A stretch of DNA of 64,000 nt from Candidatus Omnitrophota bacterium (GCA_043814605.1 JBDRJV010000035.1:10275-74274); one strand, 5' to 3'. Shown: positions 14,501 to 41,731, counted from the first letter of the stretch. Translations and numbers: made by a program. The notes: generated from the sequence alone by a model not told the origin.

Positions 14501-14676
14501 TAGAAATTGATATTTTGCATATTAATAACTGGAGCAAGATTATTTCTTTCTTGAGGATTTGCACTTAATGACTTAATATCCCCGTCAGCAAAAGACATAT
14601 TTGATAATAAAAAACCATGAATAATTAGAAGAGTAAGAACTTTAACCCAAAATTTTCCTGTAAGAAACTTAACCAT
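11578..14676 (-). CDS. Large exported protein (1032 aa) with a central SIS/phosphoglucose-isomerase-like motif
   Basis: Signal peptide MVKFLTGKFWVKVLTLLIIHGFLLSNMSFA. VIMWVMSRSGNTTEP resembles the PGI SIS motif (V.SKSGTT.ET), and GGRHM..SWLAIIG is nearby. Confidence 0.4.
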   Translation of the reverse strand: MVKFLTGKFWVKVLTLLIIHGFLLSNMSFADGDIKSLSANPQERNNLAPVINMQNINFYQMFSIKKEDILKKYAIPAINPKFLMQEIKASMDLAGIYNYERLIGTIINALDADAFVPAVIELAKKSGKTKEQVLEILKKNPKLKSKILRYELNAAKHAGTLNISDLSDNYLKINVTDKEVTVYPASQSPALNPGPANYLSNLLIQKFIDAQTTSFPHFDGIDDFYGRFLQLPGYGKEKPEWFTSESNLEIYGEKGLSDLRESIDGLRNFMENNLNIEEIDNVLNNGIGANEQYARRLRDILDQLVKALGINFNLQIVDNPAQILQVLENFRDPTIKNVIMWVMSRSGNTTEPADLQEILINPNAFLQILNVISWANAGRVKNLTMSIDPEQGTVYFIDNTRSDIGGRHMLELTDMVYGPLYSWLAIIGYKQFKDKHKTFDWAEKMLKVYAQGIYQTNIELMPKRIKDNNLNQAMNNAASKLAVSARRNYTKDRNKFWMVYPETLSNFIMEHAQNTNEGIAGLAPGLQRNNFIHSFSAFGDNNNDYMQLAQARPDLYQFIFFIDSNSPEAAAMRIQSNMLRSLYQIPVQVIELRIEKVNKGDSQAEVDRKLAYNLAVQARATVLMQTEVITLSHFEDKDPTSNLAVKTTRETTAESQGILMLRQLKQPGEALSFKDRIIPMKEVVENAQAAKAIRRSEWRKQLTDKIKQAKMNVNDISLPGAFNAYIENVLIPVADDLGVNLEDLAGIILAAINKTIFYSDYAESGGKKTEMVDVILDSFEAFKNMGRLSSDYSLPPLDNEVVVHKDIDNGIVMSVACEQNISQEEENNYKDKSFDDAPEVIASYYFNLLQQQGRLDTVEYFGLGYMISDAQDENIGEVKKSINENLGKFGISNFSMVFPGFSHVAIEGMQAQVERSILAFLIPTHSFPEGEGELGSLEISKGLTLNIALNVYEFGNSARMMAIGGTPGLVIFYKDKTKLPVIKQTMKKALELLSEKLSQQQAEAVKNTGEDKILEKSAAPSQALIMNLERSI

Positions 14677-14944: not shown

Positions 14945-16348
14945 TTAAAACCGAAAAAGACGTTTAAGGGCAACATAAGAATACCAAAACATATTCAATT
15001 TATAAGGAAATCGGATAATTATCCGCACAATCCTTTTAATATCCAGAAAAAATTTACGATAGGCAAGCTTTTGTAATTGATGTAATCTTTTTGTGGCAAC
15101 TGTACTTAAATTAAAATCATGCAACCAATAATCAACTTCATAATATTGTTCTGCGGGTAATTTTGAGTATTTTTTTGCTAAATCCCATAATCCTGTTCGT
15201 TCAAAGGGAACAACAATAAAAAAATTTGCTAAATGAAGTTGAGATTTAACTGCAAAATCTATAGTCATTTTTACTTCCTCTTCAGTTTCAGTAGGAAATC
15301 CGAGCATAAAAAAAGCTTGGATAAGAATCTTATATTTATTAAGCAAGTTGATACTTTCAACTATTTTTTTTAAATCAAGATTTTTTTTAATTAATTTTTG
15401 AATACGTGCTGATGCTGTTTCAACTGCAACTGTAACTAAGTTTACTCCGGCAGCTTTTAATTTTTTAACATCCTCTTCATTAAGAATATCTCCTCTTAAA
15501 GCGTTAGGGAAAGAAAATGAAATATTTAACTTTTGTTCAACTATAGAATCAAGAATTTCATGCATTCTTTTTCTCTCAAAATTAAACGTATCATCATAAA
15601 TTAAAAATTGGTGAATATTAAAATTTTTCTGCATATATTTTATTTCATCAATTACATTATCCGGGCTTCTCCCTCTAAATTTCTTACCAAAAACATGATG
15701 ACAATACGCACATTGATAAGGACATCCGCGGCTTGTAAAAATCGGCAAATACCTTAATGGTCCTAAGGTAGACATATTTCTTGTTTTAAAATATTTTTTT
15801 AAATCTAACAGATCAAAAGCAGGATAAGGCAAGGAATCTAAGTTTTCCATAAAAGCAGGCGAACCTGTAAAAATAACCTTACCTTCTCGGGCAAAAGCAA
15901 TCCCTTTTATCTGAGACAAATTTCCGTTATTGAGCAATACTTTAACTATATTTTCTATTGTCCCTTCTGTTTCTCCTACAGCAACTAAGTCTATTGATGG
16001 CTCAAGAGCCAGACTATCATAATGAATTGTTGCATGAGCTCCTCCTACGATAAGTTTAACATCAGGTAATGTTTGTTTTATTTTATTAGCAACCTCAAGC
16101 ATCAATCCAGCATTATAAGTCATTGCCGATAAGCCGACAATTGCCGGGTTTTCTTTTTTAATCACCTCGGTAATTTCCTGCGGATTCATTTTTTTTATCT
16201 TCATATCAAGGATATGAACATTTTTAAAACCAGATTTGCGCATTACAGCTGCTAAATAGCAAATTCCCATCGGCGGGGTCATTATCGGATCATTAGATGT
16301 AAATTTTCCGATATTTATAAAAATTATTTTTCCCTGTTTTGACATCAT
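14945..16348 (-). CDS. B12-binding-domain radical SAM protein (paralogue 1)
   Basis: N-terminal cobalamin-binding-like domain (IVGLSAMTYNAGLMLEVANKIK..VGGAHATIH) followed by TSRGCPYQCAYCHH. Confidence 0.75.
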   Translation of the reverse strand: MMSKQGKIIFINIGKFTSNDPIMTPPMGICYLAAVMRKSGFKNVHILDMKIKKMNPQEITEVIKKENPAIVGLSAMTYNAGLMLEVANKIKQTLPDVKLIVGGAHATIHYDSLALEPSIDLVAVGETEGTIENIVKVLLNNGNLSQIKGIAFAREGKVIFTGSPAFMENLDSLPYPAFDLLDLKKYFKTRNMSTLGPLRYLPIFTSRGCPYQCAYCHHVFGKKFRGRSPDNVIDEIKYMQKNFNIHQFLIYDDTFNFERKRMHEILDSIVEQKLNISFSFPNALRGDILNEEDVKKLKAAGVNLVTVAVETASARIQKLIKKNLDLKKIVESINLLNKYKILIQAFFMLGFPTETEEEVKMTIDFAVKSQLHLANFFIVVPFERTGLWDLAKKYSKLPAEQYYEVDYWLHDFNLSTVATKRLHQLQKLAYRKFFLDIKRIVRIIIRFPYKLNMFWYSYVALKRLFRF

Positions 16349-16369
16349 TGAGTCTGTACGCCTTTCTGA

Positions 16370-17860
16370 TTAAAACATAATATTTTTAACCAAACTAAAA
16401 ATTTTAAATTCCCAAGGAAATTTAAAATTTAAATTCTTAAGACGATATCTGGCAATCGGTCTATATACTTTGCATAAAAGTCTAACAAAAACAGATTCGA
16501 TTATATCATTGCTTTTTTCATCAATAAATAAACTTAAGAAAAAAATAAAATTTAACTCTTTTTTTTCTTTGGCATTAAACCAGGGCGTAATTATCGTTGA
16601 ACCGTCTATTTTCGCCCATTCTTTTAAAGAACCAGGCATTTTAAAACCCTGTCCTTGTGCCTGTTCTAATAGTTTTGTCCCTGGCTGAGGAGTTAAACAA
16701 AAAGCCGATAATATCCTTGCTTGGGGATTATCTTCAAGCAGTTTAAACATTAAATCAATACTTTTCTTTAAATCTATACGTGTTTCACCCGGCATGCCAA
16801 TCGTAAAATAATAATAGCAAATCATATTAGTTTTTTTAAGACGATTATTTAATTGAATTATATCTAAAAGAGAGGATTTTTTCTGCATTCCTTCAAGCAT
16901 TTTAACAGAGCCTGATTCTGCTCCCATACGTAAAATAGAACATCCTGCGTGTTCGATCAGCTCCAAATAAGCATCACTGACGCTAATTAATTTATCAATA
17001 TCCACTCCTTGTAAAAACCATTTTATAGCTATATTTCTTTTTATTAATCCCCGGGCTATATCTTCAACTCTTTTTAGATCTGTAAAAAATGCATCATCAA
17101 TAAAATCCAAACAGCTAACATTATATTCTTTTACTAACCGTTCAATCCGCTTTAAAACTTTTTCTGCGGATTGAGCGCGCCATTTTCTTTTATTAAACAC
17201 AGGATTATAGCAAAAAATACAATCCTGCACACAGCCGCGGGAAGTTTCTATATTTAATTTTAGTTTGTCTTTTTCAAACCGGGATCCAGCACTAACATTA
17301 TATTCAGACACATTAATCAGATGATACGGCAAATCCGGTAATTCATTTAAATCAATAAAATCACGTATTCCGGTAAAAATAAACTCTTTGTTCTTTTTAT
17401 AATAAATACCCCTGACCTTTGAGATATCTTCTTTTTTTTCAATTGCCTGAGCAAATTCAAACAGAGTTTCTTCTGCTTCGCCCACACAAACATAATCAAT
17501 GCTGGGTTCTTTTAATACAACTTCCGGGATTAAACTCGGATGCACTCCTCCCCAGATTACAGGGATATTAATTTTTAATTTGAAATTTTTTGAACTTTTT
17601 AGATATTCAGAGATTTCCAGCGCATGCAAAATTTGTGTGCCCCCCATTGTATGCACGCCCGCTAAAATTGTATCTTCATTTACTATTTTTTTTAATTCGA
17701 GTTTCCAATCACAATATAAATTCTGGTCAAAAATTTTTACATCATATTTCTCTGTTAAATAAACCGCAGCACTTAATAACCCCAGCGGCAAGGGCCGTTT
17801 TTTACGCAGATTAACAAATAAACCGCCGGTTTTAGGATAAATGAGAATTATTCTTTTCAT
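16370..17860 (-). CDS. B12-binding-domain radical SAM protein (paralogue 2)
   Basis: Same architecture, with TSRGCVQDCIFCYNP. Confidence 0.75.
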   Translation of the reverse strand: MKRIILIYPKTGGLFVNLRKKRPLPLGLLSAAVYLTEKYDVKIFDQNLYCDWKLELKKIVNEDTILAGVHTMGGTQILHALEISEYLKSSKNFKLKINIPVIWGGVHPSLIPEVVLKEPSIDYVCVGEAEETLFEFAQAIEKKEDISKVRGIYYKKNKEFIFTGIRDFIDLNELPDLPYHLINVSEYNVSAGSRFEKDKLKLNIETSRGCVQDCIFCYNPVFNKRKWRAQSAEKVLKRIERLVKEYNVSCLDFIDDAFFTDLKRVEDIARGLIKRNIAIKWFLQGVDIDKLISVSDAYLELIEHAGCSILRMGAESGSVKMLEGMQKKSSLLDIIQLNNRLKKTNMICYYYFTIGMPGETRIDLKKSIDLMFKLLEDNPQARILSAFCLTPQPGTKLLEQAQGQGFKMPGSLKEWAKIDGSTIITPWFNAKEKKELNFIFFLSLFIDEKSNDIIESVFVRLLCKVYRPIARYRLKNLNFKFPWEFKIFSLVKNIMF

Positions 17861-17952
17861 GTTCAGGTCTCAGGTTACAAGTTACAGGTTTTAAGCCACA
17901 GGCATGTACTAATTCTTCTACTTGCTACTTGCTACTTACTGCCTGATGCTTG
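17861..17952. repeat. Heptad-repeat intergenic element with inverted arms
   Basis: Left arm CAGGTTA CAAGTTA CAGGTTT TAAGCCA CAGGCAT. Right arm CTTGCTA CTTGCTA CTTACTG CCTGATG CTTGTTA CTTATTG CTTGTTA. The arms are imperfect reverse complements of each other. It fills the whole gap between two rSAM genes. Confidence 0.7.
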
Positions 17953-19473
17953 TTACTTATTGCTTGTTACTTTTAAAAGTTTATCAATAAATTTATCCGA
18001 TAAATATTTTTTTACTAAATACTCTTTTTTTGCTTTTACGCTTATTGATTTATTTTTCATGATTAGATATTCTTTAATTTTAGATAAATTTACCTGTAGC
18101 ATTTGATAAAAAAGCAGGATTATACTTTTTTGAAAATACCTGCGGAAATGATATTGAGGATGCAATAAAAATAAATATTTTATCGGGTCAAAGGTAGAAA
18201 ATAAATTAAATAAAAAATGCTCAGTGGAAGATTCATCCGAACAAGTCAACCTTGCATCGTGATAAAATAAATCATCAATTTCAAAATCTTGGGTAATATT
18301 TTTATATCCGTAAGTTGTGGGAAAAGCTTTATAATTTCCCGCGCGGGCATCTGTACAGTATTTACGCGCAACAGAGTATTTAAGTTTTTCTGTTTGCTTT
18401 AATCCCGGAATACCGGAAATAAATAAACCCGTAACAAATATGTTATATTTTTTAAGTACTTTTATGGCTTTGAAATAACCCTGATCACGGGTAGAATTAT
18501 CTAACCCCTTATTGATTCTTGTTAATACCCGGGGATTTGTATGCTCAAACCCAATAATTATTCTCTTCAAACCGCTTCTTGCCGCAAAATCAATAAAACC
18601 CGGATTATTAATAATTGTATCAATTCTTAAAAAAGCGCCCCAGCTAAAATCAAATCTCTCCGACAGCATCATCTCAATTAATTGGCTGTCCCTGTTAATA
18701 TCATTAGCAAATCCATCATCAACAATCGCCAGTTGAGAAACCCCCAGGTTTTTTAAAATTTTCAATTCTTCTTTAACCCTGGGAAGAGATTTATACCTCT
18801 GCTGTTTTTCCCAAAAAGAGTTAACCAAACAAAAATTACAATCATTAATACAACCGCGGGAAGTTTCTATGCTTGCCGAAAACCCTTTCTGGGAAAGCAT
18901 TAAATCATAGAGTTTAAAATCAATAATCCCCCAATTAGGCAGAGGAGAACAATCTAAATCATCCAATAACGGATAATCCCCGGTATCGATAATTTGGCCG
19001 GCTGCCTGATAAATAAGTCCCGGGATATCTGCAAGATTTTGCCAATCATTTTTATGGGTTGAAGCTTTAATCAGCCGGAAAAATGTGCCTTCAGCCTCCC
19101 GCTTTACAATTATATCCACGCCTCTTTCAAGCCACTGCCTTGCATAAACATTAGCATGAATCCCGCCTGCGATAATTGGTTTCTGGGGGCAGATTTTTTT
19201 GATTATTTTTATCGTGATTTCATAATTAAGACTAACCAAAGAATCCATTATACTTAAAACAATAACATCATATTTTTGAACAAGTTTTTTGTATTCGGGG
19301 ATTGTTAAACTATCATAAAAACCGTCAAAATAAAAAACTTCATGCTCCAGCGGGACTAAAGCAGCCAGTAAAGGAAAAGTTACTCCGGGATTAGAAAAAA
19401 GATATCTGGCAAAATCATTACGAACCGGCCAGGCAGTATGAATATCTAAGGGGTTTAAGAACAAGATTTTCAC
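17953..19473 (-). CDS. B12-binding-domain radical SAM protein (paralogue 3)
   Basis: Same architecture, with TSRGCINDCNFCLV. Confidence 0.75.
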   Translation of the reverse strand: MKILFLNPLDIHTAWPVRNDFARYLFSNPGVTFPLLAALVPLEHEVFYFDGFYDSLTIPEYKKLVQKYDVIVLSIMDSLVSLNYEITIKIIKKICPQKPIIAGGIHANVYARQWLERGVDIIVKREAEGTFFRLIKASTHKNDWQNLADIPGLIYQAAGQIIDTGDYPLLDDLDCSPLPNWGIIDFKLYDLMLSQKGFSASIETSRGCINDCNFCLVNSFWEKQQRYKSLPRVKEELKILKNLGVSQLAIVDDGFANDINRDSQLIEMMLSERFDFSWGAFLRIDTIINNPGFIDFAARSGLKRIIIGFEHTNPRVLTRINKGLDNSTRDQGYFKAIKVLKKYNIFVTGLFISGIPGLKQTEKLKYSVARKYCTDARAGNYKAFPTTYGYKNITQDFEIDDLFYHDARLTCSDESSTEHFLFNLFSTFDPIKYLFLLHPQYHFRRYFQKSIILLFYQMLQVNLSKIKEYLIMKNKSISVKAKKEYLVKKYLSDKFIDKLLKVTSNK

Positions 19474-19477
19474 AAAA

Positions 19478-21022
19478 CTAAAACCTCTTTTTTAATATTT
19501 TTGATTTTTTAGTTAAAGATTGTGATAATATCCATCCCGAAAGAATTGCTGTGGTTACTCCGGTTCCGGGGAGGGTCCAGTGCCCGGATAAATAAAGATT
19601 TTTAACCGGAGTTTTTTGCTTTAAACGGTAAATCAAAGCTTGCTCCGGTGTATTCGCCCAGCCGTACATTGACCCCTGAAAACTTAAAGAAAAATTATTT
19701 AAATCCTGAGGAGTAAATATTTTTTTCACCACAATATGTTTAGATAAGTTTTTCACTTTTTTTTCTACGATATTAATCATTTCATCCGCGATTTGTTCTT
19801 TTGCCATGCGCCAGTCCCGTTCTGTTTGCCAGGGGAAAAATGCCGTTAAGATTAATGTGCTGTGCCCGGGAGGCGCTAAGTTAGTTTCAATATGCGTTGG
19901 TGAATAGGCACTTAAACAAGAGAGGATTCCTTTTGTCAGCTTTTCAAAATTTAAGTTAAAATCCAGCGATTCATAAAAAAAATATTCATGTTTATCTAAA
20001 CCATTCTGAGCAATATCAAAATCAAGGCCCAAGAATAATTTAAACGGGCCAACCGCCGGAGATAGTTTAAATAGCTTATTCATATATTTTTTAGGCAAAA
20101 GATCAGGGTTGATTAATTTGGTAAAAGTCTCTATAGCATCGGCATTAGAAATAACTGTGTTGGCGAATATTTTTTCCCCGTTTTCTAAAATTACCCCTTT
20201 TGCTTGATTTTCTTCAATTATTATTGCTTGAACTGCAGATTCAAGTAATACTTTCCCCTGTTTTTGTTCTATCGCCTGGACAAAAACATCGGTAACTTTT
20301 TGTGAACTGCCTTTTGGATAATAGGTATGTTCTCCATAAAGCCCGCTCATACAAGCCGCAAGCATCAACCCGGATATTTTATCTGGCGGTAATCCTAAAT
20401 AAGGCCAGCAAGCCGTAAATAACGCCGCTAAATGTTTATCTTTAGTGATAATTTGAAAAAACTTATCCGCAGTTTTCCGGGAATTAAACAGCCAGAATAA
20501 TCCGGTAAGAGGATATAATATTTTTTTTAATACACCAATCTTATCATAATCACTTCTTTTAACCGCTTGTTTACCCTGAAAAATCCGCGCGGTAATCATT
20601 ACATCCTGACGCCAGGCAATCATTAGTTTAAAAAACCTACGAATATCTTTTTTATTGCCCGGAGAGTACTTGAGCATAATTTTTTCCAGTGCGGCATAAT
20701 TACCCGGTAAAGGAATTTCACAATCCGGTAAAACTAAAACAACAAAGGGATCAATTTTAAAAAATTCAAGTTTATCTTTTATTTGATAATCTTCCAGCAC
20801 CCGGGCACAATTTCCCCTTTCATCAATTCCGGTTAATTGATGCACGGCTAAATCAAAAGTATATCCGCCAAGGTTAAAAGCTGAACAATTTCCTCCCGCA
20901 ACCCGGTTACGTTCGCAAACAACTACTCTTTGCCCGGCTTGCGCTAACCCTAAAGCTGCAGATAACCCTCCCATACCGCTGCCAATAATTACTGCATCTG
21001 CAATCTGTTTATTTTCTGTCAT
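19478..21022 (-). CDS. FAD-dependent oxidoreductase, phytoene desaturase (CrtI)/amine-oxidase family
   Basis: Dinucleotide-binding ADAVIIGSGMGGLSAALGLAQAGQRVVVCERNRVAGG and a CrtI-like length. The start is assigned to the ATG at 21020-21022, which shares its A with the recJ TAA (TAATG). Confidence 0.7.
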   Translation of the reverse strand: MTENKQIADAVIIGSGMGGLSAALGLAQAGQRVVVCERNRVAGGNCSAFNLGGYTFDLAVHQLTGIDERGNCARVLEDYQIKDKLEFFKIDPFVVLVLPDCEIPLPGNYAALEKIMLKYSPGNKKDIRRFFKLMIAWRQDVMITARIFQGKQAVKRSDYDKIGVLKKILYPLTGLFWLFNSRKTADKFFQIITKDKHLAALFTACWPYLGLPPDKISGLMLAACMSGLYGEHTYYPKGSSQKVTDVFVQAIEQKQGKVLLESAVQAIIIEENQAKGVILENGEKIFANTVISNADAIETFTKLINPDLLPKKYMNKLFKLSPAVGPFKLFLGLDFDIAQNGLDKHEYFFYESLDFNLNFEKLTKGILSCLSAYSPTHIETNLAPPGHSTLILTAFFPWQTERDWRMAKEQIADEMINIVEKKVKNLSKHIVVKKIFTPQDLNNFSLSFQGSMYGWANTPEQALIYRLKQKTPVKNLYLSGHWTLPGTGVTTAILSGWILSQSLTKKSKILKKRF

Positions 21023-22707
21023 TAAAAAATCCGGATATCTTTTAATTGTAATTGAATTGTGGATATCCCCTGCCACTCATTCATCGCCGGTGAATAAACA
21101 ATAGAAAAACCTTTATTAATATGTGAAATGTCCAGATCCGTAAACTTACTGCCAAAAGCTTCACAAGTAACTTTTCCGTCTGTAACCCACATCTTAAACC
21201 CGTTACCGCGTAAAGCCTTTGGCCTGCCTTTTAAAGCTAAATCACGTGAAATAAATACAGGCCGCGGGTTGCCCATACCAAACGGAGCGCACTGTTCAAT
21301 TTCGTTAATCAATTTTTCCGAAAGCACGCTTAAATCAATCTCCATATCAATATCAACCGTGGGAATTAAATCATCTTCGGTTAAGGATTTTATCGCCATT
21401 TCATTAAAAAACTCTTTGAAACTTTGCAGGTTTTCTCTCAAAATACTAATCCCCGCGGCTTTTTCATGGCCGCCAAATTCTTGTAATAAATGACCGCATT
21501 TAGTGAGTGTTTCAAATAAATGAAAATTTCTGATTGAACGCCCGGACCCCTTGCCTGTACTATCTTTAGTTGAAATTAAAATTGTCGGCCGGTAAAACCG
21601 TTCGGCAATACGCGAAGCAACAATGCCGATAACTCCAGGATGCCAATCATCATTGTGTAATACAAGAGAGCGGTGCTGTTTAAAATTTATTTGGGTTTCA
21701 ATCATGGCTAAAGCGCCGCGCAGAGTTTTAGCTTCTTCTTTTTGCCGTTCTTTATTTTCTCTATCCAGGTTTTGTGCTAATTTAAGTGCCTGCACATAAT
21801 CACGGGTTAAGAGAAGATCTAGGGCCATTTGGGCTGATCCCATGCGTCCGGTAGCATTAATCCGCGGGCCTAATATAAATCCGACATGGTAGCTTGAGAG
21901 CTTACGTTTAGATATTCCGGTAATTTCGATTAAAGCTTGCAATCCTATCTTTTTTGTCTGTGATAATCTTCCCAGCCCTTCTTTTACTAAAATTCGATTT
22001 TCACCCACTAAAGTTGCAACATCACTGATTGTTCCCAAGGCCACTAAATCCAAATGTTGGTATACATCGCTGTTTTTCCCGGCAATAGTTTGGGCTAATT
22101 TATAAGCAATCCCTACGCCTGCTAATTCTTTAAACGGATACTGACAATCTTTTTGCCAAGGATTAATCACTGCATAGGCTGCAGGTATTTTATGCTCACG
22201 CGGTTGATGGTGATCGGTAATAATAATATCAATACCCTGTGAATTTAGAAAACCTGTTTCTTTAAAACTGGATATTCCACAATCTACGGTAATAATTAAT
22301 CCTGCTCCTTGCGCTTTTAAATATGCACAGGCTTCTTGATTCAAGCCATAGCCTTCTTCTACCCGGTGCGGAATATAACAGTAAACATCCGCCCCCAAAT
22401 CTTTAAGCACAAAAAACAATAATGCACAACTGGTTAATCCATCAACATCATAATCCCCGTAAATAAATATTTTTTCTTTTTGTTTAATTGCTTTTCTAAT
22501 CCGCAATACAGATTTTTCCATATCCTTAAGTAGTAATGGATCAAAACAATTATCAATACAAGCATTTAAATAAAAATCCGCTTCGGCTAATGTATTGACT
22601 TGCCGATTGAGAAGAATTTGGGCAATAATCGGAGAAATACCCAGTTCTTGGGAAAAATTATTTTGTTTTTTTAAATCTATCTTGCTAATGTTCCAGTTTT
22701 TTTGCAT
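21022..22707 (-). CDS. recJ: Single-stranded-DNA-specific exonuclease RecJ
   Basis: DHH motifs IYGDYDVDGLTS, ITVDCGISS and IITDHHQP, and the DHHA1 motif GGHEKAAGISI. Confidence 0.9.
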   Translation of the reverse strand: MQKNWNISKIDLKKQNNFSQELGISPIIAQILLNRQVNTLAEADFYLNACIDNCFDPLLLKDMEKSVLRIRKAIKQKEKIFIYGDYDVDGLTSCALLFFVLKDLGADVYCYIPHRVEEGYGLNQEACAYLKAQGAGLIITVDCGISSFKETGFLNSQGIDIIITDHHQPREHKIPAAYAVINPWQKDCQYPFKELAGVGIAYKLAQTIAGKNSDVYQHLDLVALGTISDVATLVGENRILVKEGLGRLSQTKKIGLQALIEITGISKRKLSSYHVGFILGPRINATGRMGSAQMALDLLLTRDYVQALKLAQNLDRENKERQKEEAKTLRGALAMIETQINFKQHRSLVLHNDDWHPGVIGIVASRIAERFYRPTILISTKDSTGKGSGRSIRNFHLFETLTKCGHLLQEFGGHEKAAGISILRENLQSFKEFFNEMAIKSLTEDDLIPTVDIDMEIDLSVLSEKLINEIEQCAPFGMGNPRPVFISRDLALKGRPKALRGNGFKMWVTDGKVTCEAFGSKFTDLDISHINKGFSIVYSPAMNEWQGISTIQLQLKDIRIF

Positions 22708-23416: not shown

Positions 23417-23458
23417 CTCCTCATTATTTGTGTAATATTTAATGTATAAAGTGTGATG

Positions 23459-23712
23459 TAAAAATCAAATAAAAAAAGCATACATTGAGAAATCATATGT
23501 GATTTTGTTTAATTTATGGATGGAGATGAAGACCCGCCTAGTCATCTTCAGAGTAGCCTCACTGTGGTGGCGAGGCTGGCACGATGTCGCAACGCCATAA
23601 ACCAAGGATGGTTTTTTGGCAGCGAAGTCTTCAAACATAAATTATTACAAAATAAATATTATTTCTTAGGATGTGTTTTTATTTGATTTCCAAAGATCTA
23701 TCATTATTTTAT
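23459..23712 (+). repeat. Roughly 250-bp structured intergenic repeat, copy 1 (candidate sRNA, cis-regulatory RNA or mini-ORF element)
   Basis: About 88% identical to 26787-27047. It contains the hairpin tgaagatga-agacccgcctag-tcatcttca, the stem gcctc/gaggc and the closing gaagac/gtcttc, plus a conserved small ORF. Confidence 0.8.
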
Positions 23713-23786
23713 TGCGTTATTACTGCTGCAACAAATTTAAATTATAAGTGCAAAAAACTTATTTTTTCTAATCGCTAACCGCTATA

Positions 23787-24488
23787 TTAAAATTTGTATC
23801 CAATTCCAAAATTAATTGCCCATTCGTCAAAAAAGCGTATTTCTGCATTAGCATTTACATCATCTTTAATCTGATAATCAGCCCCCAGGAGAAAACCCCA
23901 GCAATCTTCGCTTTTTAACCGCCGCCTTAAATCACCTTGCTTGTACTTAAGCTGCGTATTGCTATATTGAGGGCCAAAATAAATATCGTTTTCCCTAAAT
24001 TCTTTTATAAACAGCCATGTTCCCTGCCATTCATCCCAAATTACCCGGTGCTCTATATTATTGACCGTATCTTTAAACGGATGACAACTTATATGCTGGA
24101 ATCCAAAGATTGACTTAATTTTTTCTTTCTCATCTGCATAAAATAGATAGCGAATCCCATAACCTCCGGCAAAACCAGTCGGGAAATCAAGATTTAACCC
24201 ATCATTACGCTGAAAAGAAACATTGCCCAACCCAACTTTTCCGTCAATAAATAACCGCTTGGTTAAGCCGTAACTGGCTTTAAGAAAATACTGGGTTGTC
24301 GCTCCCTGGCCCGGGACTTTATTAAAATCACGCTTAAAGATATGATTATACTGAAAACCCCAGATTGTCGTGTGCAAACCAGGCAGAAAATTCCCCTCAG
24401 ACGGAATGGCCAATAAACTCGGGTAAGATAAAAATAAGCTTAAGAAGCTGATTAAGCTTATGCAAACAATAAATTTTATCCGTTCCAT
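23787..24488 (-). CDS. Outer-membrane beta-barrel protein (signal peptide, C-terminal aromatic residue)
   Basis: MERIKFIVCISLISFLSLFLSYPSLLA signal peptide, alternating amphipathic segments, C-terminus IGYKF. Confidence 0.45.
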   Translation of the reverse strand: MERIKFIVCISLISFLSLFLSYPSLLAIPSEGNFLPGLHTTIWGFQYNHIFKRDFNKVPGQGATTQYFLKASYGLTKRLFIDGKVGLGNVSFQRNDGLNLDFPTGFAGGYGIRYLFYADEKEKIKSIFGFQHISCHPFKDTVNNIEHRVIWDEWQGTWLFIKEFRENDIYFGPQYSNTQLKYKQGDLRRRLKSEDCWGFLLGADYQIKDDVNANAEIRFFDEWAINFGIGYKF

Positions 24489-24554
24489 GGAAAAACAAAT
24501 CCTTGTTTTTTTATTATAATATATATAATAGACTGGTTTATTAAATTTAACAAA

Positions 24555-26261
24555 TTATTTTTTAGATTTTTTAGCGTACACTTCTTTTATTACTAACCCG
24601 CTCTCTAAAATCATCCAGATTTCTAACATCAATACGCAGATACTAATAACAAAAAGCCCCCAATTTGAATTTTTATAAAAATTATTTAGATTGATTAGCA
24701 TTGCCCAGCCCGTCATCAGGATCATAAAAACCATGGGGATTGCTGTAGCGAGAGCATTTATTTTTTTACGTGCTAAGGATATTGTTATGACCAGCAATGC
24801 TAATCCGGCTAAAAGCTGATTTAATGCCCCAAACAAAGGCCAAAGCACTAACGCCCCTTTTCCGCTGCCATTAAAAAAAGCTAAGACAAGTGCAGAAAAT
24901 ACCGCAATACAAGTAGCAGAATATTTATTTTTTAATTTTGGCATTCTCCAGGCACAAGCTAATTCTCCCACCACATAGCGCTGGATACGTGTTGCTGTAT
25001 CCAATGTCGTTGCGGCAAAAGAAACCAAAAAAACTCCCATAATTGTAATCGTAATTTTAGCTGGAATCCCTATGGTCCTGATTAAATTAGCAGAACCAGT
25101 TACAAATGCGCTTAATTTTGAGGATAAACCACTGGCCTGGGACCAGCTTGCGTATTGATAATTAAACGCCGCCACCCCTTTTAAAACCTCACCCGTTTGT
25201 GTCTTTAATCCCATACCCAGGCCTGCACTAACGGCAATAATCACAAGAATTGCTAATATTGCTTCAATTAACATGCTTCCGTACCCGATAAACAAAGTAT
25301 CTTGTTCTTTATCACATTGCTTAGAACTTGTACCCGAAGAAACTAAACTATGAAACCCGGAAATCGCCCCGCAGGCAATCACGACAAAAATAGCCGGGAA
25401 TAACGCTGGCGCACCTGGGGGAGCTAAGTTAATTGCGGGTGCCACAATACTAGGATTTGCCAAACAAATGCCCAAAGCTAAAAATACCATGGCAACTAAA
25501 AGCTGGTAAGAATTGATAAAATCTCTGGGCTGTAATAATAACTGTACCGGCAAAGTTGAGGCAAAAAAAACATAGATTAATAAAATTACAATCCAAACTG
25601 CAATTGGCTCAAAACCAAAAAACCCCGGTAAATTTAAAGGTAAAAACGCACCCATGATAATTGTCAAATACATTAAAATAACTGCGATTATCCCCATGAT
25701 ATTGGGATTTTTATTTTTCTGATAAATCATTATCCCTAAAATTACCGCGATAGGTATTTGCAACCACACTGGCAAAACTGATTCCGGATACATGGTAAAT
25801 AAAATTGCAATAATTAATGCAAAAACTGAAATAACAATCCAAAGCCCGAAAAATATAATTAAAAGAAAAAGCGTCCTGACTCTCTTGTTTATAATATCAG
25901 CCGCCAGATCTCCTACGGAACGGCCTTGTGCACGCAGAGAAATAATTAATGCGCCAAAATCATGCACAGCTCCGATAAAAATTGACCCAAACAATATCCA
26001 CAATACTGCCGGCACCCAGCCCCAAATAATTGCAATTGCCGGCCCGACAATCGGCCCCAAACCAGCAATAGATGTAAAATGATGTCCAAAAAGCACTTGT
26101 TTATTAGTAGGAATATAATCCAGATCATCCCGCTGACTATGGCTGGGGCAAATTGTTTGCGGATTAAGGCGAAAGATTTTTTGAGCTAAGAATCTACCGT
26201 AAATTTTATACGCCAGCCAAAAACAAAAACTCATTACAATTAATAAAAATAATGAACTCAT
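24555..26261 (-). CDS. cstA: Carbon starvation protein A (peptide/pyruvate transporter family)
   Basis: LFGHHFTSIAGLGPIVGPAIAIIWGWVPAVLWILFGSIFIGAVHDF matches the CstA N-terminal signature, in a 568-aa multi-TM protein. Confidence 0.9.
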   Translation of the reverse strand: MSSLFLLIVMSFCFWLAYKIYGRFLAQKIFRLNPQTICPSHSQRDDLDYIPTNKQVLFGHHFTSIAGLGPIVGPAIAIIWGWVPAVLWILFGSIFIGAVHDFGALIISLRAQGRSVGDLAADIINKRVRTLFLLIIFFGLWIVISVFALIIAILFTMYPESVLPVWLQIPIAVILGIMIYQKNKNPNIMGIIAVILMYLTIIMGAFLPLNLPGFFGFEPIAVWIVILLIYVFFASTLPVQLLLQPRDFINSYQLLVAMVFLALGICLANPSIVAPAINLAPPGAPALFPAIFVVIACGAISGFHSLVSSGTSSKQCDKEQDTLFIGYGSMLIEAILAILVIIAVSAGLGMGLKTQTGEVLKGVAAFNYQYASWSQASGLSSKLSAFVTGSANLIRTIGIPAKITITIMGVFLVSFAATTLDTATRIQRYVVGELACAWRMPKLKNKYSATCIAVFSALVLAFFNGSGKGALVLWPLFGALNQLLAGLALLVITISLARKKINALATAIPMVFMILMTGWAMLINLNNFYKNSNWGLFVISICVLMLEIWMILESGLVIKEVYAKKSKK

Positions 26262-26307
26262 AATCTTCTCGATAATTTTTAACTACTTTAACAAATTATT
26301 ACAAAAT

Positions 26308-26325
26308 GTACGGGCATGCCCGTAC
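26308..26325. promoter_or_regulatory. Perfect 18-bp palindrome GTACGGGCATGCCCGTAC about 50 bp upstream of the cstA start
   Basis: The sequence is self-complementary. It lies between the small membrane protein gene and cstA and could be an operator or an intercistronic hairpin. Confidence 0.4.
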
Positions 26326-26429
26326 CCTACATGATTATTAATTATAATTTTTTGCGTCCTTCGTCATTGTTCTTTCATCTTTTGCTTTTACTATTATCCG
26401 GAATCAACCTTCAACCCCTAACATTCGCA

Positions 26430-26765
26430 CTATAACCTAACTTCATCATTATCCACAACTTCGGCTTCTACATCAATAACTCCACCGCTTGTATCTGTAT
26501 GACTATGATTATTATTCTGATGATCTCTATTCTCGGAGTTAAAACCTCCTTGCGTTTTCTGAAAAGAATCTTTAAATGTGCCAAATAAAACATTCTTGCC
26601 CACAAGTAAAGCTGCAAAAAAAATAACCAGTAATATCCCGCCTAAAGCCAGCCAGAAGAAAAAACGAAAGAATAATAACCCAAAGAAAAAATTAAATAAT
26701 AGAAGCATGCCTATAAAATGCACCAATTTACCTACTATATATAAAATTCTTGAACTTAACCGCAT
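26430..26765 (-). CDS. Small membrane protein with a His/Asn-rich C-terminal tail (hypothetical)
   Basis: Two hydrophobic helices followed by NSENRDHQNNNHSHTDTSGG. No family was recognised. Confidence 0.35.
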   Translation of the reverse strand: MRLSSRILYIVGKLVHFIGMLLLFNFFFGLLFFRFFFWLALGGILLVIFFAALLVGKNVLFGTFKDSFQKTQGGFNSENRDHQNNNHSHTDTSGGVIDVEAEVVDNDEVRL

Positions 26766-26786
26766 TATTTCCCTTTTAAGCTTGCT

Positions 26787-27047
26787 TAAAAATCAAACAA
26801 AAAAAAGCAGCCATTAAGAAATTATGTGTGATTTTGTTTAATTTATGTATGAAGATGAAGACCCGCCTAGTCATCTTCAGAGTAGCCTCACTGTGTTGGC
26901 GAGGCTGGCACGACGTCGTAACGCCGTAAACCAAGGATGGTTTTTCGGTGGCGAAGTCTTCTATACATAAATTATTACAAAATGAACATTAGTTTCTTAG
27001 AATGCGTTTTTGTTTGATTTTCAAAGATCATTTATCACATTAACATA
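26787..27047 (+). repeat. Roughly 250-bp structured intergenic repeat, copy 2
   Basis: Direct repeat of 23459-23712 in the same orientation. It lies immediately upstream of the minus-strand small membrane protein gene and downstream of the HI0933-family gene. Confidence 0.8.
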
Positions 27048-27052
27048 TATTT

Positions 27053-28288
27053 CTACACATTTTTTCCCGCCGCAAACCCCGTAGAAAAAGCTGCTTGTAG
27101 ATTATACCCACCGGTTAGACCTGCAACATCCAAAATTTCTCCGCAAAAATAAAGCCCAGGAACAATCTTTGATTCCATGGTTTTCGGGTTGATCTCTCTA
27201 GTGTCTACCCCGCCCCGGGTAATCATGGCCTGTTCAAAAGCAAAAAATTGCCGGACTTTTAATTCTAATGATTTTAAATTATTTATCAAGCTAATTTTTT
27301 CTCTTTTACTTAATTCTATCATTTTCTTATCGGTAAGGATACCGGATATTTTTAATATTTCATGAACAAATTTAACCGGCAATATCTGCGTAAGAAAATT
27401 TTTACATTTTATTTGTGATTTTCTTAACGCTTTATCATTGAATTGGTTAAGAATAATATCCTGTGTTAAATCCGGCAAAAAATCAATTTTTAAGATTACA
27501 TCCTGCTTTTTGATTTTATCAATAAAAAGACTAATATCCAGTATCCCTGGGCCGGAAACGCCAAAATGCGTAAAAACCAATTCGCCCTCTATAGTTTTTT
27601 TTCTTTTTCTATTAATATACAGGCTAATCCTGGAATCAGAAAAACTTATACCCTGAAGATTTTTTATCCATTTATTATCAATCACTAAAGATGACAATCC
27701 CGGGCGTAAATTAATAATATTATGCCCAAGTTTTTCTGCCCAATTAAACCCGTCTCCGGTTGAACCTGTAGCAGGATATGTTTTTCCTCCTGTAGCGATA
27801 ACAACTTTCTCTGTATTAATCTGTTCACTACAATCTGTTTTTACAGCCATAATTTTCTGATTCTTTGCAATAATCTTTGCAACATTAGTGTTTAATTTTA
27901 TTTCAACCCCGGATTGTTTTAATGATCTTTCTAAAGCATTAACCACATCCTGCGCATTATCAGAAGCAGGAAAGATTCTTCCTTTATTTTCTGCTTTAAC
28001 TTTAAGCCCTGATTCTTTAAAAAAATTAATTAACTCTGTATTATAAAAAACATTAAAAGCATTATGTAAAAATTTAACTGCGTCAACATAATGTTCCGGA
28101 AAATCCGATAGACTAGAAATATTTGTTAAATTGCATCTGGAATTTCCGGTTAACCGCAGTTTTTTGCCGAGACATTTGTTCTTTTCTAAGAGCAAGACTG
28201 ATTTTCCGCTTTTAGCCGCAGTTGCTGCGGCAATCATCCCCGCCGGACCTGCACCAATAACAATTACATCAAATCTTCTATCGGCCAT
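27053..28288 (-). CDS. HI0933/YhiN-family FAD-binding flavoprotein (BaiN/aminoacetone oxidase-like)
   Basis: MADRRFDVIVIGAGPAGMIAAATAAKSGKSVLLLEKNKCLGKKLRLTGNSRCNLTN. Confidence 0.75.
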   Translation of the reverse strand: MADRRFDVIVIGAGPAGMIAAATAAKSGKSVLLLEKNKCLGKKLRLTGNSRCNLTNISSLSDFPEHYVDAVKFLHNAFNVFYNTELINFFKESGLKVKAENKGRIFPASDNAQDVVNALERSLKQSGVEIKLNTNVAKIIAKNQKIMAVKTDCSEQINTEKVVIATGGKTYPATGSTGDGFNWAEKLGHNIINLRPGLSSLVIDNKWIKNLQGISFSDSRISLYINRKRKKTIEGELVFTHFGVSGPGILDISLFIDKIKKQDVILKIDFLPDLTQDIILNQFNDKALRKSQIKCKNFLTQILPVKFVHEILKISGILTDKKMIELSKREKISLINNLKSLELKVRQFFAFEQAMITRGGVDTREINPKTMESKIVPGLYFCGEILDVAGLTGGYNLQAAFSTGFAAGKNV

Positions 28289-28407: not shown

Positions 28408-30099
28408 TTAATTTAATTTTTCATATAAATAATAATATTGCCCTGAGTCTAATAAAATTTTATCCATTAAAACTACATTATCTTTTGAGTACATTAAAAA
28501 TTCATATGGAAGATCTGCCTTTTTTAACATTTCCATGTTTAGCCCTTGCCGCAATTCATTTATCTCAACCCAATCTTGGCTGATATTTACAGGCGATATA
28601 TAATAAAATTGGCTGTGAACATATAAAGCAGATAACTCTCTATCGCTAAACTCCTGCATAAATGCTTCTGGTTTCTTTGATAGTAGATAGCCGATAAAAT
28701 TTTTTTCTAAAACAGATCCTCCTTGAATAAATGCCAGGTAATTATAATATTCTTTTATTTGTTTTGAATAATTCTCTTTTTTATAATTTCCCGTATATTG
28801 TTTTTCAAAAAAACTTAAATACTTTTTCCCTGCCGGATACGCCCATAACGAATACGGCCTCATTTTCCATTTCGCAAATAATAAGTTGTGCATACCTGCA
28901 ATCTTTGTGTCCCTGATCCTAAGATTAAAGGAAAGATAAAAAAATTGATAAAATAACAAAAATATCACTAAAGCAATACTGCATTTTTTAATCAGGCTAG
29001 GCTTAAGCTTTGCAATCGCAATCCCCCAGAGCATGGCTACAGGCGGCATTGCCGGGAGCAAATATCTCAATGCTTGATCGTTATAAAAAATGAGGAGAAA
29101 AAACGGCAAAAGCATCCAGAAAAATAAGAGTTTTTTATATTTTATTTTTATTGTGATTATGGTTGCTATTGACATGCCCGCAGCTGCAATCACCAATAAC
29201 CCATTATCTTTAAAAAAACCAGCAGTATAAAAAATAATGTTTTCTTTGATTTTACTTAATGAACTTAATTGATAGATTTTACCGCCTAATGCTTCTGACC
29301 TAATAGTCGTAATCATCCAACGCATATTTTCCGTTCCATGCCAGTATAAAAAAATTAAAAATGCCGGGATAAAAAATACAGTAAAATTTACAATCCCCTG
29401 CCAAATATTTTTTTTATTTTTATTTTGTTTAATCAACTCAAAAATATTATCTAATATTATAACGATCAAAAAAGAAAAAAAATAAATTATAAATGATGGT
29501 TTCCCTAGAATTCCCAGCCCGCAAATTATTCCCAGCATAAAAGAACTTTTCAGCGTTTTAAACCCCTGAGTTACAAGAAAATAAAAAGATAGTGTCAACA
29601 ATGCTATTAAGGGAATATCCTGGTTATATATGTGCGAATAATTAAATACCAGAGGAATTAACGATATGAATAACATTGCAAAAACACCCGCTTTTTCCCC
29701 TTCAATTATTTTCGTTGTTTTGTAAATAAAAATTAACAGGATCAGAAAGAAAAGAAAAAAAGTCATTTGAATTTTAAAAAAAGAAAAACCAATTGCAAAA
29801 CTACACAATGAACTAACCACATATAAAAGAGGAGTTCTGGGGTACGGCCAAAAAAATTTTTGATGCCGGATATTATTTAGCACGAGTAAAAAATCAGGTA
29901 ACGATTGACTCAGGTTTTTATATATACATAGTACCTTGGGAATATGTTCCATTTCTAGTTCGTGTATTGGAATATGATGATTCATTACCCAAAATAAATG
30001 ACAAAAGAGATGAAACAATATCACAAAAATTAGGATAAGTTTAAATTTTATTTTTTTTACCTTTTGAATCAAGTCGTTCTTTTTGTGTTGTTCATCCAT
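28408..30099 (-). CDS. Multi-pass membrane protein, glycosyltransferase family 39/83 (ArnT/PMT)-like
   Basis: 563 aa with about 12 TM helices and a large C-terminal soluble domain. The topology resembles lipid-linked-sugar glycosyltransferases. The assignment is weak. Confidence 0.35.
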   Translation of the reverse strand: MDEQHKKNDLIQKVKKIKFKLILIFVILFHLFCHLFWVMNHHIPIHELEMEHIPKVLCIYKNLSQSLPDFLLVLNNIRHQKFFWPYPRTPLLYVVSSLCSFAIGFSFFKIQMTFFLFFLILLIFIYKTTKIIEGEKAGVFAMLFISLIPLVFNYSHIYNQDIPLIALLTLSFYFLVTQGFKTLKSSFMLGIICGLGILGKPSFIIYFFSFLIVIILDNIFELIKQNKNKKNIWQGIVNFTVFFIPAFLIFLYWHGTENMRWMITTIRSEALGGKIYQLSSLSKIKENIIFYTAGFFKDNGLLVIAAAGMSIATIITIKIKYKKLLFFWMLLPFFLLIFYNDQALRYLLPAMPPVAMLWGIAIAKLKPSLIKKCSIALVIFLLFYQFFYLSFNLRIRDTKIAGMHNLLFAKWKMRPYSLWAYPAGKKYLSFFEKQYTGNYKKENYSKQIKEYYNYLAFIQGGSVLEKNFIGYLLSKKPEAFMQEFSDRELSALYVHSQFYYISPVNISQDWVEINELRQGLNMEMLKKADLPYEFLMYSKDNVVLMDKILLDSGQYYYLYEKLN

Positions 30100-35645: not shown

Positions 35646-36518
35646 TTATGCTCTGGGATGCGTCTGGTCATAAACATTCTTTAATTTTTCCGTAGATAAA
35701 TGTGTATAAATTGTTGTTGTCGATAAATTTGCATGGCCTAATAATTCTTGAACCGCTCTTAAATCAGCTCCGCGGTTTAATAAATGTGTAGCAAATGAAT
35801 GCCGTAAACTGTGCGGAGAGATATCACTGCGGATGCTCGCAACTTTTATATATTTTTCAATTATGTTACGAATGCTCCGGTCTGTTAATCTATGCTTATC
35901 TTTATTTAAAAATAACGCTTTCACTGTTTGAGGTGTTGCTAAATTCCTTTTTTGTAAATAATTTTTTATTACCCTTAATGCCCGGTCGCCAATTGGCGCT
36001 AAGCGTTCTTTTTTCCCTTTTCCCAGAACTCTCACTACTCCGCCAATAAAATCAACATCCGTAATATTTAATCCCACTAATTCACTCACCCGGATACCCG
36101 TGCTGTATAAAGTTTCTAAAATTGCCTTATCGCGTAACCCCATCAGGTCATTTTCCTGCGGAGAATCCAGTAATTTAGAAACATCATCTTCTCCTAAAAA
36201 TATCGGTAACTTTTTTTCCAGTTTTGGCCCGACCAATCCCACCATGGGATTAAGTTTAATATGCCCTTCCCGGCATAAAAATTTAAAAAATGACCTTAAA
36301 CAGGCCATTTTACGGGCGATAGTTACCTTTTTAAATCCTTTTTTCCTTAACTCAACTAAAAATTTCCGTACCTCCAGGACATCAATATTAGCAATATCTT
36401 TACTTTGCGCAAAACTAGAAAACCCCTTAAGATCTACACTGTAATTTATTAAAGTATGTATAGATGCATCTTTTTCTACTTTTAAATAATTTAAGAACTT
36501 ATCTATATAGCGTTCCAT
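35646..36518 (-). CDS. Tyrosine site-specific recombinase XerC/XerD
   Basis: Catalytic-domain motifs HSLRHSFATHLLNRGADLRAVQELLGHANLSTTTIYTHL. Confidence 0.85.
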   Translation of the reverse strand: MERYIDKFLNYLKVEKDASIHTLINYSVDLKGFSSFAQSKDIANIDVLEVRKFLVELRKKGFKKVTIARKMACLRSFFKFLCREGHIKLNPMVGLVGPKLEKKLPIFLGEDDVSKLLDSPQENDLMGLRDKAILETLYSTGIRVSELVGLNITDVDFIGGVVRVLGKGKKERLAPIGDRALRVIKNYLQKRNLATPQTVKALFLNKDKHRLTDRSIRNIIEKYIKVASIRSDISPHSLRHSFATHLLNRGADLRAVQELLGHANLSTTTIYTHLSTEKLKNVYDQTHPRA

Positions 36519-41049: not shown

Positions 41050-41658
41050 TTATACACCTAAAGACGAAAGCACAATTTTTAAAGCTTCTGGTTTTGGTAA
41101 AAACAATTGTGAACATTCTAATTTTGTGTTGGAAATTAAAAGCTCAACATCAATCATAAAAACTTCATCTGCAACTTGGCCGATTTCTGCTAAAATAGCG
41201 TCCAGCATAGCACCCAGCATATCACAAGCTATCGCCGGGACAGTGGCAATTGAATTTATACCCACAAGCTGGCTTAAAGCACTCAAATACGATCCGCAAA
41301 TAATCGACCCTACTTCTTTTAATGCGGAGGATGCGATTTCTGAATGCATATCAAGCTCTTTATTATCTAAAAGCTTGTCTACTAAAAATTCCGCACTTTC
41401 CGGAGCAAAAATTGTTAACATTGTGCCTTCCAACTCACGAATAACTTGTAAAAATACCACATAAACAATCTTATCCGCTCCCCCTAAAAATTCCGGCACT
41501 GCCTCTAATGGCAAGACTTTAACCGCCGGGACAATCATTTCTACAGAATCAGTAATTAATTGAGAAAGCGCTGTTGCTGCATTACCCGCTCCGATACTTC
41601 CCATTTCCCGTAACGCATCCATTTGAGAATCAGTTAAATCTGCCATTTTCCCCTCCAT
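41050..41658 (-). CDS. cheC: CheC-family chemotaxis phosphatase
   Basis: Two E..N..G.A-type repeats (LREMGSIGAGNAATAL, LKEVGSIICGSYLSAL). Confidence 0.8.
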   Translation of the reverse strand: MEGKMADLTDSQMDALREMGSIGAGNAATALSQLITDSVEMIVPAVKVLPLEAVPEFLGGADKIVYVVFLQVIRELEGTMLTIFAPESAEFLVDKLLDNKELDMHSEIASSALKEVGSIICGSYLSALSQLVGINSIATVPAIACDMLGAMLDAILAEIGQVADEVFMIDVELLISNTKLECSQLFLPKPEALKIVLSSLGV

Positions 41659-41731
41659 TTTAAAATACTAAAAATTAGTATTTTAAAACATTTCTCCCGC
41701 ACATAATTCATGTATTTTTCTTGTTGGTCAA

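Follow-up and report, generated by a model that had tools for sequence, protein, structure and literature searches.

In a 64,000-nt stretch of DNA from a Candidatus Omnitrophota bacterium (GCA_043814605.1, JBDRJV010000035.1:10275-74274; the window, with positions counted from its first letter), two direct repeats of roughly 250 bp bracket a 3.1-kb segment that carries cstA together with genes for an outer membrane protein (OMP) and a small membrane protein. The locus raises the question of what these repeats are, and whether they turn the segment between them into a movable unit. A first-pass annotation had put forward several identities, namely a small RNA (sRNA), a cis-regulatory leader, a small-protein or toxin-like gene, and recombination targets that would make a cstA cassette excisable or invertible. 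Our analysis leads us to favour, with moderate confidence only, a lineage-specific foldback repeat similar to MITEs, short for miniature inverted-repeat transposable elements, and to ERIC sequences, mobile or duplicative in origin and now an RNA structural module.

According to this reading, each copy would have entered, independently of the other, a spacer between two cistrons of an old gene row whose members all point the same way. Upon transcription, the element would fold into a rod of ~190-250 nt with a three-hairpin head, and selection would have kept this fold since the copies diverged by ~12%. Its role would be played at the RNA level, for instance as a processing or stability point, as antisense or punctuation between cistrons, or as a protein-binding hairpin. 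The mobile or duplicative origin, the transcription and the RNA-level role are what we infer from the evidence set out below; in our view the element acts neither as a gene product nor as a recombination site.

Two direct repeats fill intercistronic spacers

The two copies, described here as read on the plus strand, lie at ~23459-23712 (copy 1) and ~26788-27047 (copy 2) in the same orientation, 3.3 kb apart and 87-89% identical, in agreement with the pair of direct repeats of about 88% identity reported by the first-pass annotation. A repeat search recovered a single long direct-repeat family (23449-23632 and 26778-26961, 87% identical without gaps), while the gapped alignment of 23430-23730 with 26759-27060 gave a mean column identity of 89% and placed the limits of homology at ~23459/26788 and ~23712/27042. 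When the 64 kb were probed with 22 nt of the core, allowing up to 3 mismatches, only two sites were found, which are the two copies (0 expected by chance), and neither blastn nor nhmmer detected partial extra copies in the window besides the self and reverse-complement matches. The longest block identical in both copies measures 43 nt, which on its own is not significant (P = 0.16).

Copy 1 sits in the spacer between the stop of the OMP gene (23787) and the start of an ICMT-like gene (23416), and copy 2 fills the spacer that runs from the stop of a flavoprotein gene (27053) to the start of the gene for the small, 111-residue membrane protein (26765). In both cases the next minus-strand start codon follows ~22-45 nt downstream of the end of the copy. 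The core of the element (~115 nt) has a GC content of ~50%, compared with 21-31% in the surrounding spacers. The repeats are roughly 250 bp long and the elements as a whole ~255-290 bp; the palindromic symmetry of copy 1 may extend to ~23439-23722.

Each copy is a whole-length palindrome with a three-hairpin core

Aligned with its own reverse complement, each copy proved to be an imperfect palindrome over its whole length (~245-250 nt, 63-67% identity, E values from 1e-9 to 1e-15), a feature that the first-pass annotation had overlooked, as it had the insertion into spacers that are short in relatives. AT-rich arms of ~85 nt surround the ~115-nt core, which holds three hairpins, and the full-length elements are predicted to fold at -87 and -85 kcal/mol (z = -5.5 and -6.6). 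The description of the copies as non-coding in appearance and strongly structured is supported. The minus strand folds well too (z = -3.6 and -5.4).

The arms pair with each other in the predicted folds of both copies. In copy 1 the left arm (23460-23518, plus strand) is complemented by the right arm (23636-23689): the outermost pairing joins AAAAAUCAAAUAAAAA with UUUUUAUUUGAUUU, the outermost segment, AAAAATCAAATAAAAA (23460-23475), pairs with 23676-23689, and a second arm of ~33 bp joins 23485-23518 with 23636-23669. One pair of the arms (columns 18/179) is compensated, being A-U in copy 1 and G-C in copy 2. The structured part of copy 2, arms and core, spans 26814-27000 as modelled by a covariance model (R1) that we built from the two copies.

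Within the core, hairpin 1 (H1; 23521-23550 in copy 1 and 26850-26879 in copy 2) pairs UGGAGAUGA with UCAUCUUCA below a C-rich loop. This hairpin had been described as a perfect tgaagatga/tcatcttca stem in both copies; it is indeed present in both, but the 9-bp stem is perfect in copy 2 only, copy 1 reading tgGagatga with one G·U pair. Hairpin 2 (H2; 23554-23578 and 26883-26907), with its AGCCUC...GAGGCU stem, forms the centre of the whole palindrome. Hairpin 3 (H3; 23583-23629 and 26912-26958) has a long stem that holds 6 of the 15 substitutions between the copies, and ends in an invariant apex, AAACC-AAGGAU-GGUUU (23599-23614 and 26928-26943), which presents GGA in its loop. The gcctc/gaggc and gaagac/gtcttc stems noted earlier were likewise recovered in both copies.

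Differences between the copies preserve the predicted fold

Over the 187 columns of the structured part the copies differ by 15 substitutions, 12 of which are transitions, and by two indels. The plus-strand consensus calculated with RNAalifold comprises 71 pairs, none of which is broken; in two of them, located in the outer stem and in H3 respectively, both partners have changed in compensation, and five show one-sided wobble changes. In H3, five of the six substitutions fall in pairs and keep the pairing (one A-U to G-C double change and three wobble changes), and the sixth is unpaired. A change of ccat to ccgt, which the first-pass annotation had considered tolerated merely as a G-U pair, turned out to be matched by a T to C change in its partner, giving a full A-U to G-C compensation (columns 118/138).

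Since a consensus structure is fitted to both sequences, we ran two controls. When copy 2 was threaded onto the minimum free energy structure of copy 1, 58 pairs were unchanged, six were changed with pairing kept and one was broken. In the second control, 15 random substitutions with the same mix of transitions and transversions were placed on either copy (300 simulations each). On the plus strand, the simulated pairs had mean consensus energies of -45.0 ± 4.7 and -49.8 ± 4.7 kcal/mol; the value of -61.65 that the real copies give was reached in 0/300 and 1/300 simulations. On the minus strand the same control gave 0/300 with one reference and 104/300 with copy 2 as the reference. Divergence that preserves structure in this way, especially in H3, points to selection on a folded RNA or a folded single-stranded DNA. 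Two sequences do not permit a formal covariation statistic, and the case that the predicted fold has been under selection since the copies diverged by ~12% is suggestive and falls short of proof.

A plain neutral duplication without function seems to us quite unlikely on these grounds. Only two copies are known and the 43-nt invariant run is not significant by itself, which speaks for such a duplication, but the fold has been preserved beyond random expectation, six changed pairs have kept their pairing for one that is broken, and every difference in the paired columns of the consensus leaves the pairing intact.

The same comparison bears on the strand. In identical helices, all 142 cells are paired on the plus strand, as opposed to 129 of 142 on the minus strand, where the other 13 are A·C mismatches. 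All five one-sided transitions yield G·U on the plus strand and A·C on the minus strand (one-sided binomial, 0.03), and because of this the plus strand is favoured as the functional one; we regard it as somewhat more probable than the minus strand. The first-pass claim that the differences between copies preserve structure with a bias to the plus strand is thus borne out by the 71 unbroken pairs and by the simulations. The G·U signal conflicts with a conserved minus-strand extended -10-like motif, described below.

The bracketed genes are mostly ancestral and a cstA cassette is not supported

The three genes of the bracketed segment, encoding the OMP (23787-24488), CstA (24555-26261) and the 111-residue membrane protein (26430-26765), are all on the minus strand. 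To place them in context we compared the locus with four related Omnitrophota contigs (L001, L005, L006 and L007), all of which share a conserved row of genes for an NYN protein, a flavoprotein, a membrane protein of ~102 residues, the OMP, a PEMT/ICMT protein and RecJ. Orthology was confirmed by blastp, with identities of 41-47% for the small protein, 62-66% for the OMP, 54-60% for the ICMT-like protein and 66-71% for RecJ; for the flanking flavoprotein, the nearest homologue outside the source genome is 51% identical. None of the four contigs carries cstA at this position of the row, and neither the covariance model nor blastn found the repeat in their loci. The spacer between the OMP and ICMT genes, 370 nt long in the window, measures 9-42 nt in the relatives, and their spacers between the flavoprotein and small-protein genes (28-218 nt) are unrelated in sequence. 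Because the bracketed genes are mostly ancestral and the row of the relatives has neither cstA nor the repeats, we read the repeats as separate insertions into two spacers. The lineage-specific cstA, which lies between the ancestral 111-residue protein and OMP genes and touches neither copy, and whose homologues are at most 70% identical and found in unrelated contexts, would then be a third, independent gain, its bracketing by the copies being incidental.

These observations correct a tempting misreading, since cstA is here not a repeat-bounded cassette. The notion that the copies are recombination targets making the OMP-cstA-111-residue protein segment excisable, in the manner of attC sites or of a composite transposon, draws on the direct repeats that bracket 3.1 kb, on the 43-nt identical block, which is long enough for occasional RecA-dependent deletion, and on known pairs of MITEs that flank integrons (PMC10969869). 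It nevertheless appears very unlikely. The 111-residue protein and OMP genes are syntenic in the relatives, and only cstA, which adjoins neither repeat, is new. At the copies we found no IntI integrase, no GTTRRRY or RYYYAAC ends and no attC-type core sites. No recombinase gene is adjacent to the copies either; the only tyrosine recombinase gene in the window (35646-36518, XerC/D-like) is 8.6 kb away and belongs to the conserved row. Inversion can be set aside as well, direct repeats being unable to invert the segment between them, and at most an occasional homologous deletion between the copies is possible.

Several features of this neighbourhood deserve mention in their own right. Together with a PMT_2-type glycosyltransferase gene (28408-30099), cstA is an extra gene in a row that is otherwise collinear with the four relatives. 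It is flanked by a 14-nt exact direct repeat, TTTAACAAATTATT, one copy of which (24546-24559) overlaps its stop codon while the other (26287-26300) lies 26-39 nt upstream of its start; the repeat may be an insertion scar, although in quality it resembles the chance repeats of this AT-rich DNA. In relatives, IS66- and IS4-type transposase genes stand just downstream of RecJ (L001, 15365-16993; L002, 9922-11407), and the neighbourhood of the locus therefore seems prone to insertion of mobile elements in this clade.

Comparison with foldback repeats

A MITE- or ERIC-like origin is suggested by the whole-length palindrome and by the insertions into spacers that are short in relatives, and it fits further because of the AT-rich arms, the absence of coding capacity and the absence of plus-strand promoter or terminator signals, both considered below. 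MITEs are generally described as AT-rich intergenic elements of less than 500 bp whose transcripts form a stable stem-loop (PMC10969869). In common with MITEs and ERIC, Correia/CREE, QMITE and RUP/BOX/SPRITE elements (PMC10969869, PMC2649163, PMC2229807), the repeat is shorter than 500 bp, non-coding, equipped with AT-rich inverted arms and located in intergenic or intercistronic DNA, and a very stable stem-loop is the predicted shape of its transcript. Its arms also carry possible promoter-like motifs, as described for Correia elements, which generate promoters and RNase III sites (PMC2649163). Unlike repeats of this type, it has a GC-rich three-hairpin core under apparent structural constraint, and it has no sequence similarity to elements in the phage, plasmid, genome and metagenome collections that we searched.

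Several points weigh against this assignment. No target-site duplication was found at any plausible boundary of either copy; such duplications are said to fade in older MITEs (PMC10969869), so that their lack is not decisive. Domain scans of 48 open reading frames (ORFs), each of at least 100 codons, revealed no transposase or insertion sequence in the 64 kb, and the window holds just two copies, 3.3 kb apart and in the same orientation. The ~85-nt arms are far longer than the terminal inverted repeats of 4-30 bp typical of MITEs (PMC10969869). The nearest relatives are distant (about 48-71% amino-acid identity), and absence from their spacers is also what would be expected of a fast-evolving sRNA gene. 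Finally, the neutral decay of a dead MITE would not keep the core hairpins, which means that selection at the level of RNA or single-stranded DNA has to be assumed in addition. Our confidence in the foldback repeat is only moderate because no target-site duplication and no transposase in the 64 kb accompany it, and because its copy number is that seen within the window.

Transcription signals and the minus strand

Consensus scans, which are a weak test, found neither a sigma-70-type promoter on the plus strand upstream of the core nor an intrinsic terminator in either copy; the best plus-strand candidate, TTGAGA-17-TTTAAT, lacks the A at position -11. This lends no support to the first-pass proposal that the repeats would be the only plus-strand expression in the window, and it speaks against an sRNA gene of the classic, self-contained type. 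Among promoter-like motifs, just one is shared by the two copies and directed into the core: an extended -10-like sequence on the minus strand, TGTAATAAT, no more than a consensus match, in the right arm (23641-23649 in copy 1 and 26971-26979 in copy 2). The same motif occurs 42 nt upstream of the cstA start, within a 16-nt identity to the repeat arm. Motifs of the form TG-N-(A/T)A(A/T)AAT are common inside the ORFs of this AT-rich DNA, which makes the signal a weak one.

Such a motif would suit an element that works on the minus strand, co-transcribed with the gene row or driven by a promoter in its arm. It would be a promoter joined to a leader, or a stem-loop between cistrons, and would serve as a cis-regulatory leader, attenuator or mRNA stabiliser for the downstream ICMT-like and 111-residue protein genes. 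Besides the motif in both right arms and upstream of cstA, the short distance from each copy to the next minus-strand start codon, the stable minus-strand folds and the promoters and RNase III sites supplied by Correia elements (PMC2649163) are all compatible with this arrangement, and relatives use canonical promoters in these spacers. In the spacers upstream of their OMP genes we found TTGACA-N17-TATAAT-like promoters (L005, 11770-11876; L006, 11595-11706; L007, 11934-12069), and the clade therefore appears to use standard sigma-70 signals. We nonetheless hold a minus-strand leader to be rather unlikely, as it would have to accommodate the A·C mismatches in its helices and a consensus that fares no better than random mutation when copy 2 serves as reference, along with the frequency of -10-like motifs in coding DNA and two downstream genes that are functionally unrelated; no riboswitch or leader of Rfam matches the element.

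Beside these signals, the DNA downstream of the 111-residue protein gene contains a perfect palindrome of 18 nt, GTACGGGCATGCCCGTAC (26308-26325), which resembles a terminator and is followed on the minus strand by TGTAATAAT. A stretch of 16 nt at the same place, AAATTATTACAAAATG (26293-26308), recurs exactly within the right arm of copy 2 (blastn E value of ~0.05), perhaps as a fragment of an arm, as a promoter motif common to both or by chance. We also considered a sigma-54 promoter within the core, where CTGGCACGA (23576-23584; 26905-26913 in copy 2) matches the -24 element; in copy 1 the -12 GC is misplaced by one base, in copy 2 it is lost, and the resemblance is probably fortuitous.

The mini-ORFs are not supported as genes

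The first-pass annotation had pointed to two short plus-strand ORFs in the repeats. Both are present in both copies, although openness is not confined to the plus strand: two overlapping plus frames and one minus frame run open through the GC-rich core, a situation explained by the presence of a GC-rich patch in an AT-rich genome; it is impossible for all three to be genes. The longer plus ORF has 56 codons in one copy and 41 in the other, a 1-nt indel altering the C-terminus, and by our reading replacement changes exceed silent ones by ~6:3 and ~3:2. No Shine-Dalgarno sequence is conserved between the copies; in copy 2 it is lacking altogether. Charged or rich in arginine, the peptides have too little hydrophobicity for a membrane span, and searches of 5.8 billion clustered proteins and of 1.84 billion representatives turned up no homologue.

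It was as direct repeats between genes that type I toxin-antitoxin loci such as Ldr and Ibs/Sib first came to notice. The repeats described here share with Ldr/Rdl and Ibs/Sib the direct duplication in intergenic DNA, a length of a few hundred base pairs, a mini-ORF and strong RNA structure, and one could picture the 26-codon or the 41-56-codon plus ORF being translated under the control of the RNA fold, given that start codons lie within the 5' arm of H1, that the ORFs occur in both copies and that a few differences are silent. Type I systems differ from the repeats in having a hydrophobic peptide, a conserved ribosome-binding site, frame-specific conservation and homologues. With three overlapping open frames, an excess of replacement over silent changes in every frame and the indel to be explained in addition, we rejected the toxin reading, and a small-protein or type I toxin-antitoxin locus strikes us as highly improbable.

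Resemblance to regulatory RNAs

At gathering thresholds, Rfam gave no match anywhere in the window. Below threshold, copy 2 matched TwoAYGGAY (RF01731) with 30.3 bits (E = 0.005 in a 286-nt search; gathering threshold 43 bits), while copy 1 gave no match to it at E <= 10, and the remaining matches in E-value mode were all at chance level. TwoAYGGAY, which has two GGA loops and an external stem of poor conservation, has been put forward as an sRNA that binds CsrA (PMC4333381); it was discovered in sequences from the human gut, from Gammaproteobacteria and from Clostridiales (PMC2864571). As in that family (clan CL00106), a long external stem encloses hairpins of which one presents GGA in its loop, and the match of copy 2 covers the whole model. 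Unlike it, the repeat has a single conserved GGA loop, which reads AAGGAU (23604-23609 and 26933-26938) rather than AYGGAY, the alignment contains an unrelated 43-nt insertion where the first AYGGAY hairpin should be, and the source is an Omnitrophota genome instead of Clostridiales, Gammaproteobacteria or human gut sequences. The external stem and the GGA loop make the resemblance a lead, not membership.

The apex of H3 may also be compared with a CsrA/Rsm-type binding hairpin (PMC4333381). Copy 1 has four GGA motifs and copy 2 one, and one of them is conserved; no CsrA-like motif was found in a six-frame translation of the window. Like the Csr/Rsm sponges (CsrB/C, RsmX/Y/Z), the repeats would be paralogous structured RNAs encoded close together, with a hairpin whose GGA agrees with the core bound by CsrA and a cstA gene nearby. 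Csr/Rsm-type sequestering sRNAs contain multiple GGA motifs, mostly in hairpin loops, and they do so in every member, in contrast to copy 2 with its one; nor could a promoter, a terminator or a csrA gene be identified for the repeats in the window.

These likenesses belong to the main alternative to a foldback repeat, in which the copies are paralogous, plus-strand sibling sRNA genes antisense to the gene row, acting by base pairing in trans, as cis antisense to the mRNA between the cistrons, or by titration of a CsrA-like protein through the invariant CC-AAGGAU-GG hairpin. In its favour are the GC-rich core within AT-rich DNA, the intact plus-strand helices, the secondary structure conserved with compensatory change (two double changes, five wobble changes, 0/71 pairs broken) and the random-mutation control, which is significant in both directions for the plus strand only. 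The weak match of copy 2 to a family proposed to bind CsrA adds to these (PMC4333381). The window also has a chemotaxis operon, which hints at motility, and CsrA-FliW is frequent among motile bacteria; cstA of E. coli is an established CsrA target. Set against this are the lack of a plus-strand promoter with A at -11 upstream of the core and of a terminator, complementary 85-nt arms that are atypical of sRNA genes, a GGA motif conserved only once, and a window without csrA. An exact search, moreover, found no complementarity of at least 9 nt between the core and the gene starts in the window; RNAduplex predictions against 50 start regions were uninformative, as huge loops were allowed. Lastly, the duplication of a 250-bp gene to a site 3.3 kb away without the intervening genes would itself call for a mobile-like mechanism. 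Taken together, we judge sibling sRNA genes to be a serious contender, if on balance an improbable one.

A more specific version is a long shot: plus-strand sibling RNAs of an undescribed Omnitrophota class that would act antisense around the block of the 111-residue protein, cstA and OMP genes and would uncouple expression of this carbon-starvation block from that of the other genes in the row through the invariant CsrA-type hairpin or through cleavage of sense-antisense duplexes. To our knowledge no regulatory RNA has been characterised in the Omnitrophota, and if this version were true, it would amount to a Csr-like or antisense system of operon punctuation in a candidate phylum.

Searches for relatives of the element in larger collections gave little. 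The exact pattern of the invariant H1-H2 block had 0 matches in species genomes, JGI metagenomes and viral contigs, and the pattern of the H3 apex had 0 in metagenomes. The arm pattern matched once among 185,579 species genomes, in a metagenome-assembled genome (MAG) of Dependentiae, where the unrelated context and a score of 14 bits with the model indicate chance. Searches of phages and plasmids with blastn returned nothing, and covariance model R1 found only the two window copies across 11 loci. Absence from these collections says little, the lineage being essentially unsampled. Among further candidates, a template/variable pair of a diversity-generating retroelement was rejected, the differences not being adenine-specific and a reverse transcriptase being absent, as was a retron, again for want of a reverse transcriptase; 6S RNA and Y RNA had no Rfam match and the wrong architecture. 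In the window, ARAGORN detected neither a tRNA nor a tmRNA.

None of the known RNA and protein families that were searched includes the element. On the strength of its sequence it is a modest candidate with two copies in one MAG, to be described as an as yet unclassified repeat between genes, or an sRNA candidate, of a type that is common. Should the fold truly be selected, the foldback repeat would be among the first candidate structured non-coding elements from the Omnitrophota, an uncultured and poorly sampled phylum, and would illustrate cleanly how such a repeat can retain an RNA structure once it has inserted.

Other features of the window

The minus strand holds nearly all ORFs of at least 100 codons in the 64 kb, among them all those with a Pfam match, and the few plus-strand ORFs of this size overlap longer ones on the opposite strand; the strand bias of the genes over the window is unusually complete. 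Between RecJ and the gene for a phosphoenolpyruvate-utilising enzyme, positions 14945-21076 encode an amine-oxidase-type flavoprotein and three paralogous radical SAM proteins, of which two have a B12-binding domain; in L005 and L006, RecJ is followed by the gene for the phosphoenolpyruvate-utilising enzyme without any of these genes in between. An ORF of 1032 codons at 11578-14676 has no match to a Pfam domain at E <= 1e-8. A chemotaxis operon that is complete (CheA, CheW, CheY, CheB, CheD, CheC and a methyl-accepting chemotaxis protein) occupies 41050-48649, and a NiFe hydrogenase with its maturation protease is encoded at 50772-53759; the organism is therefore probably motile and hydrogen-using.

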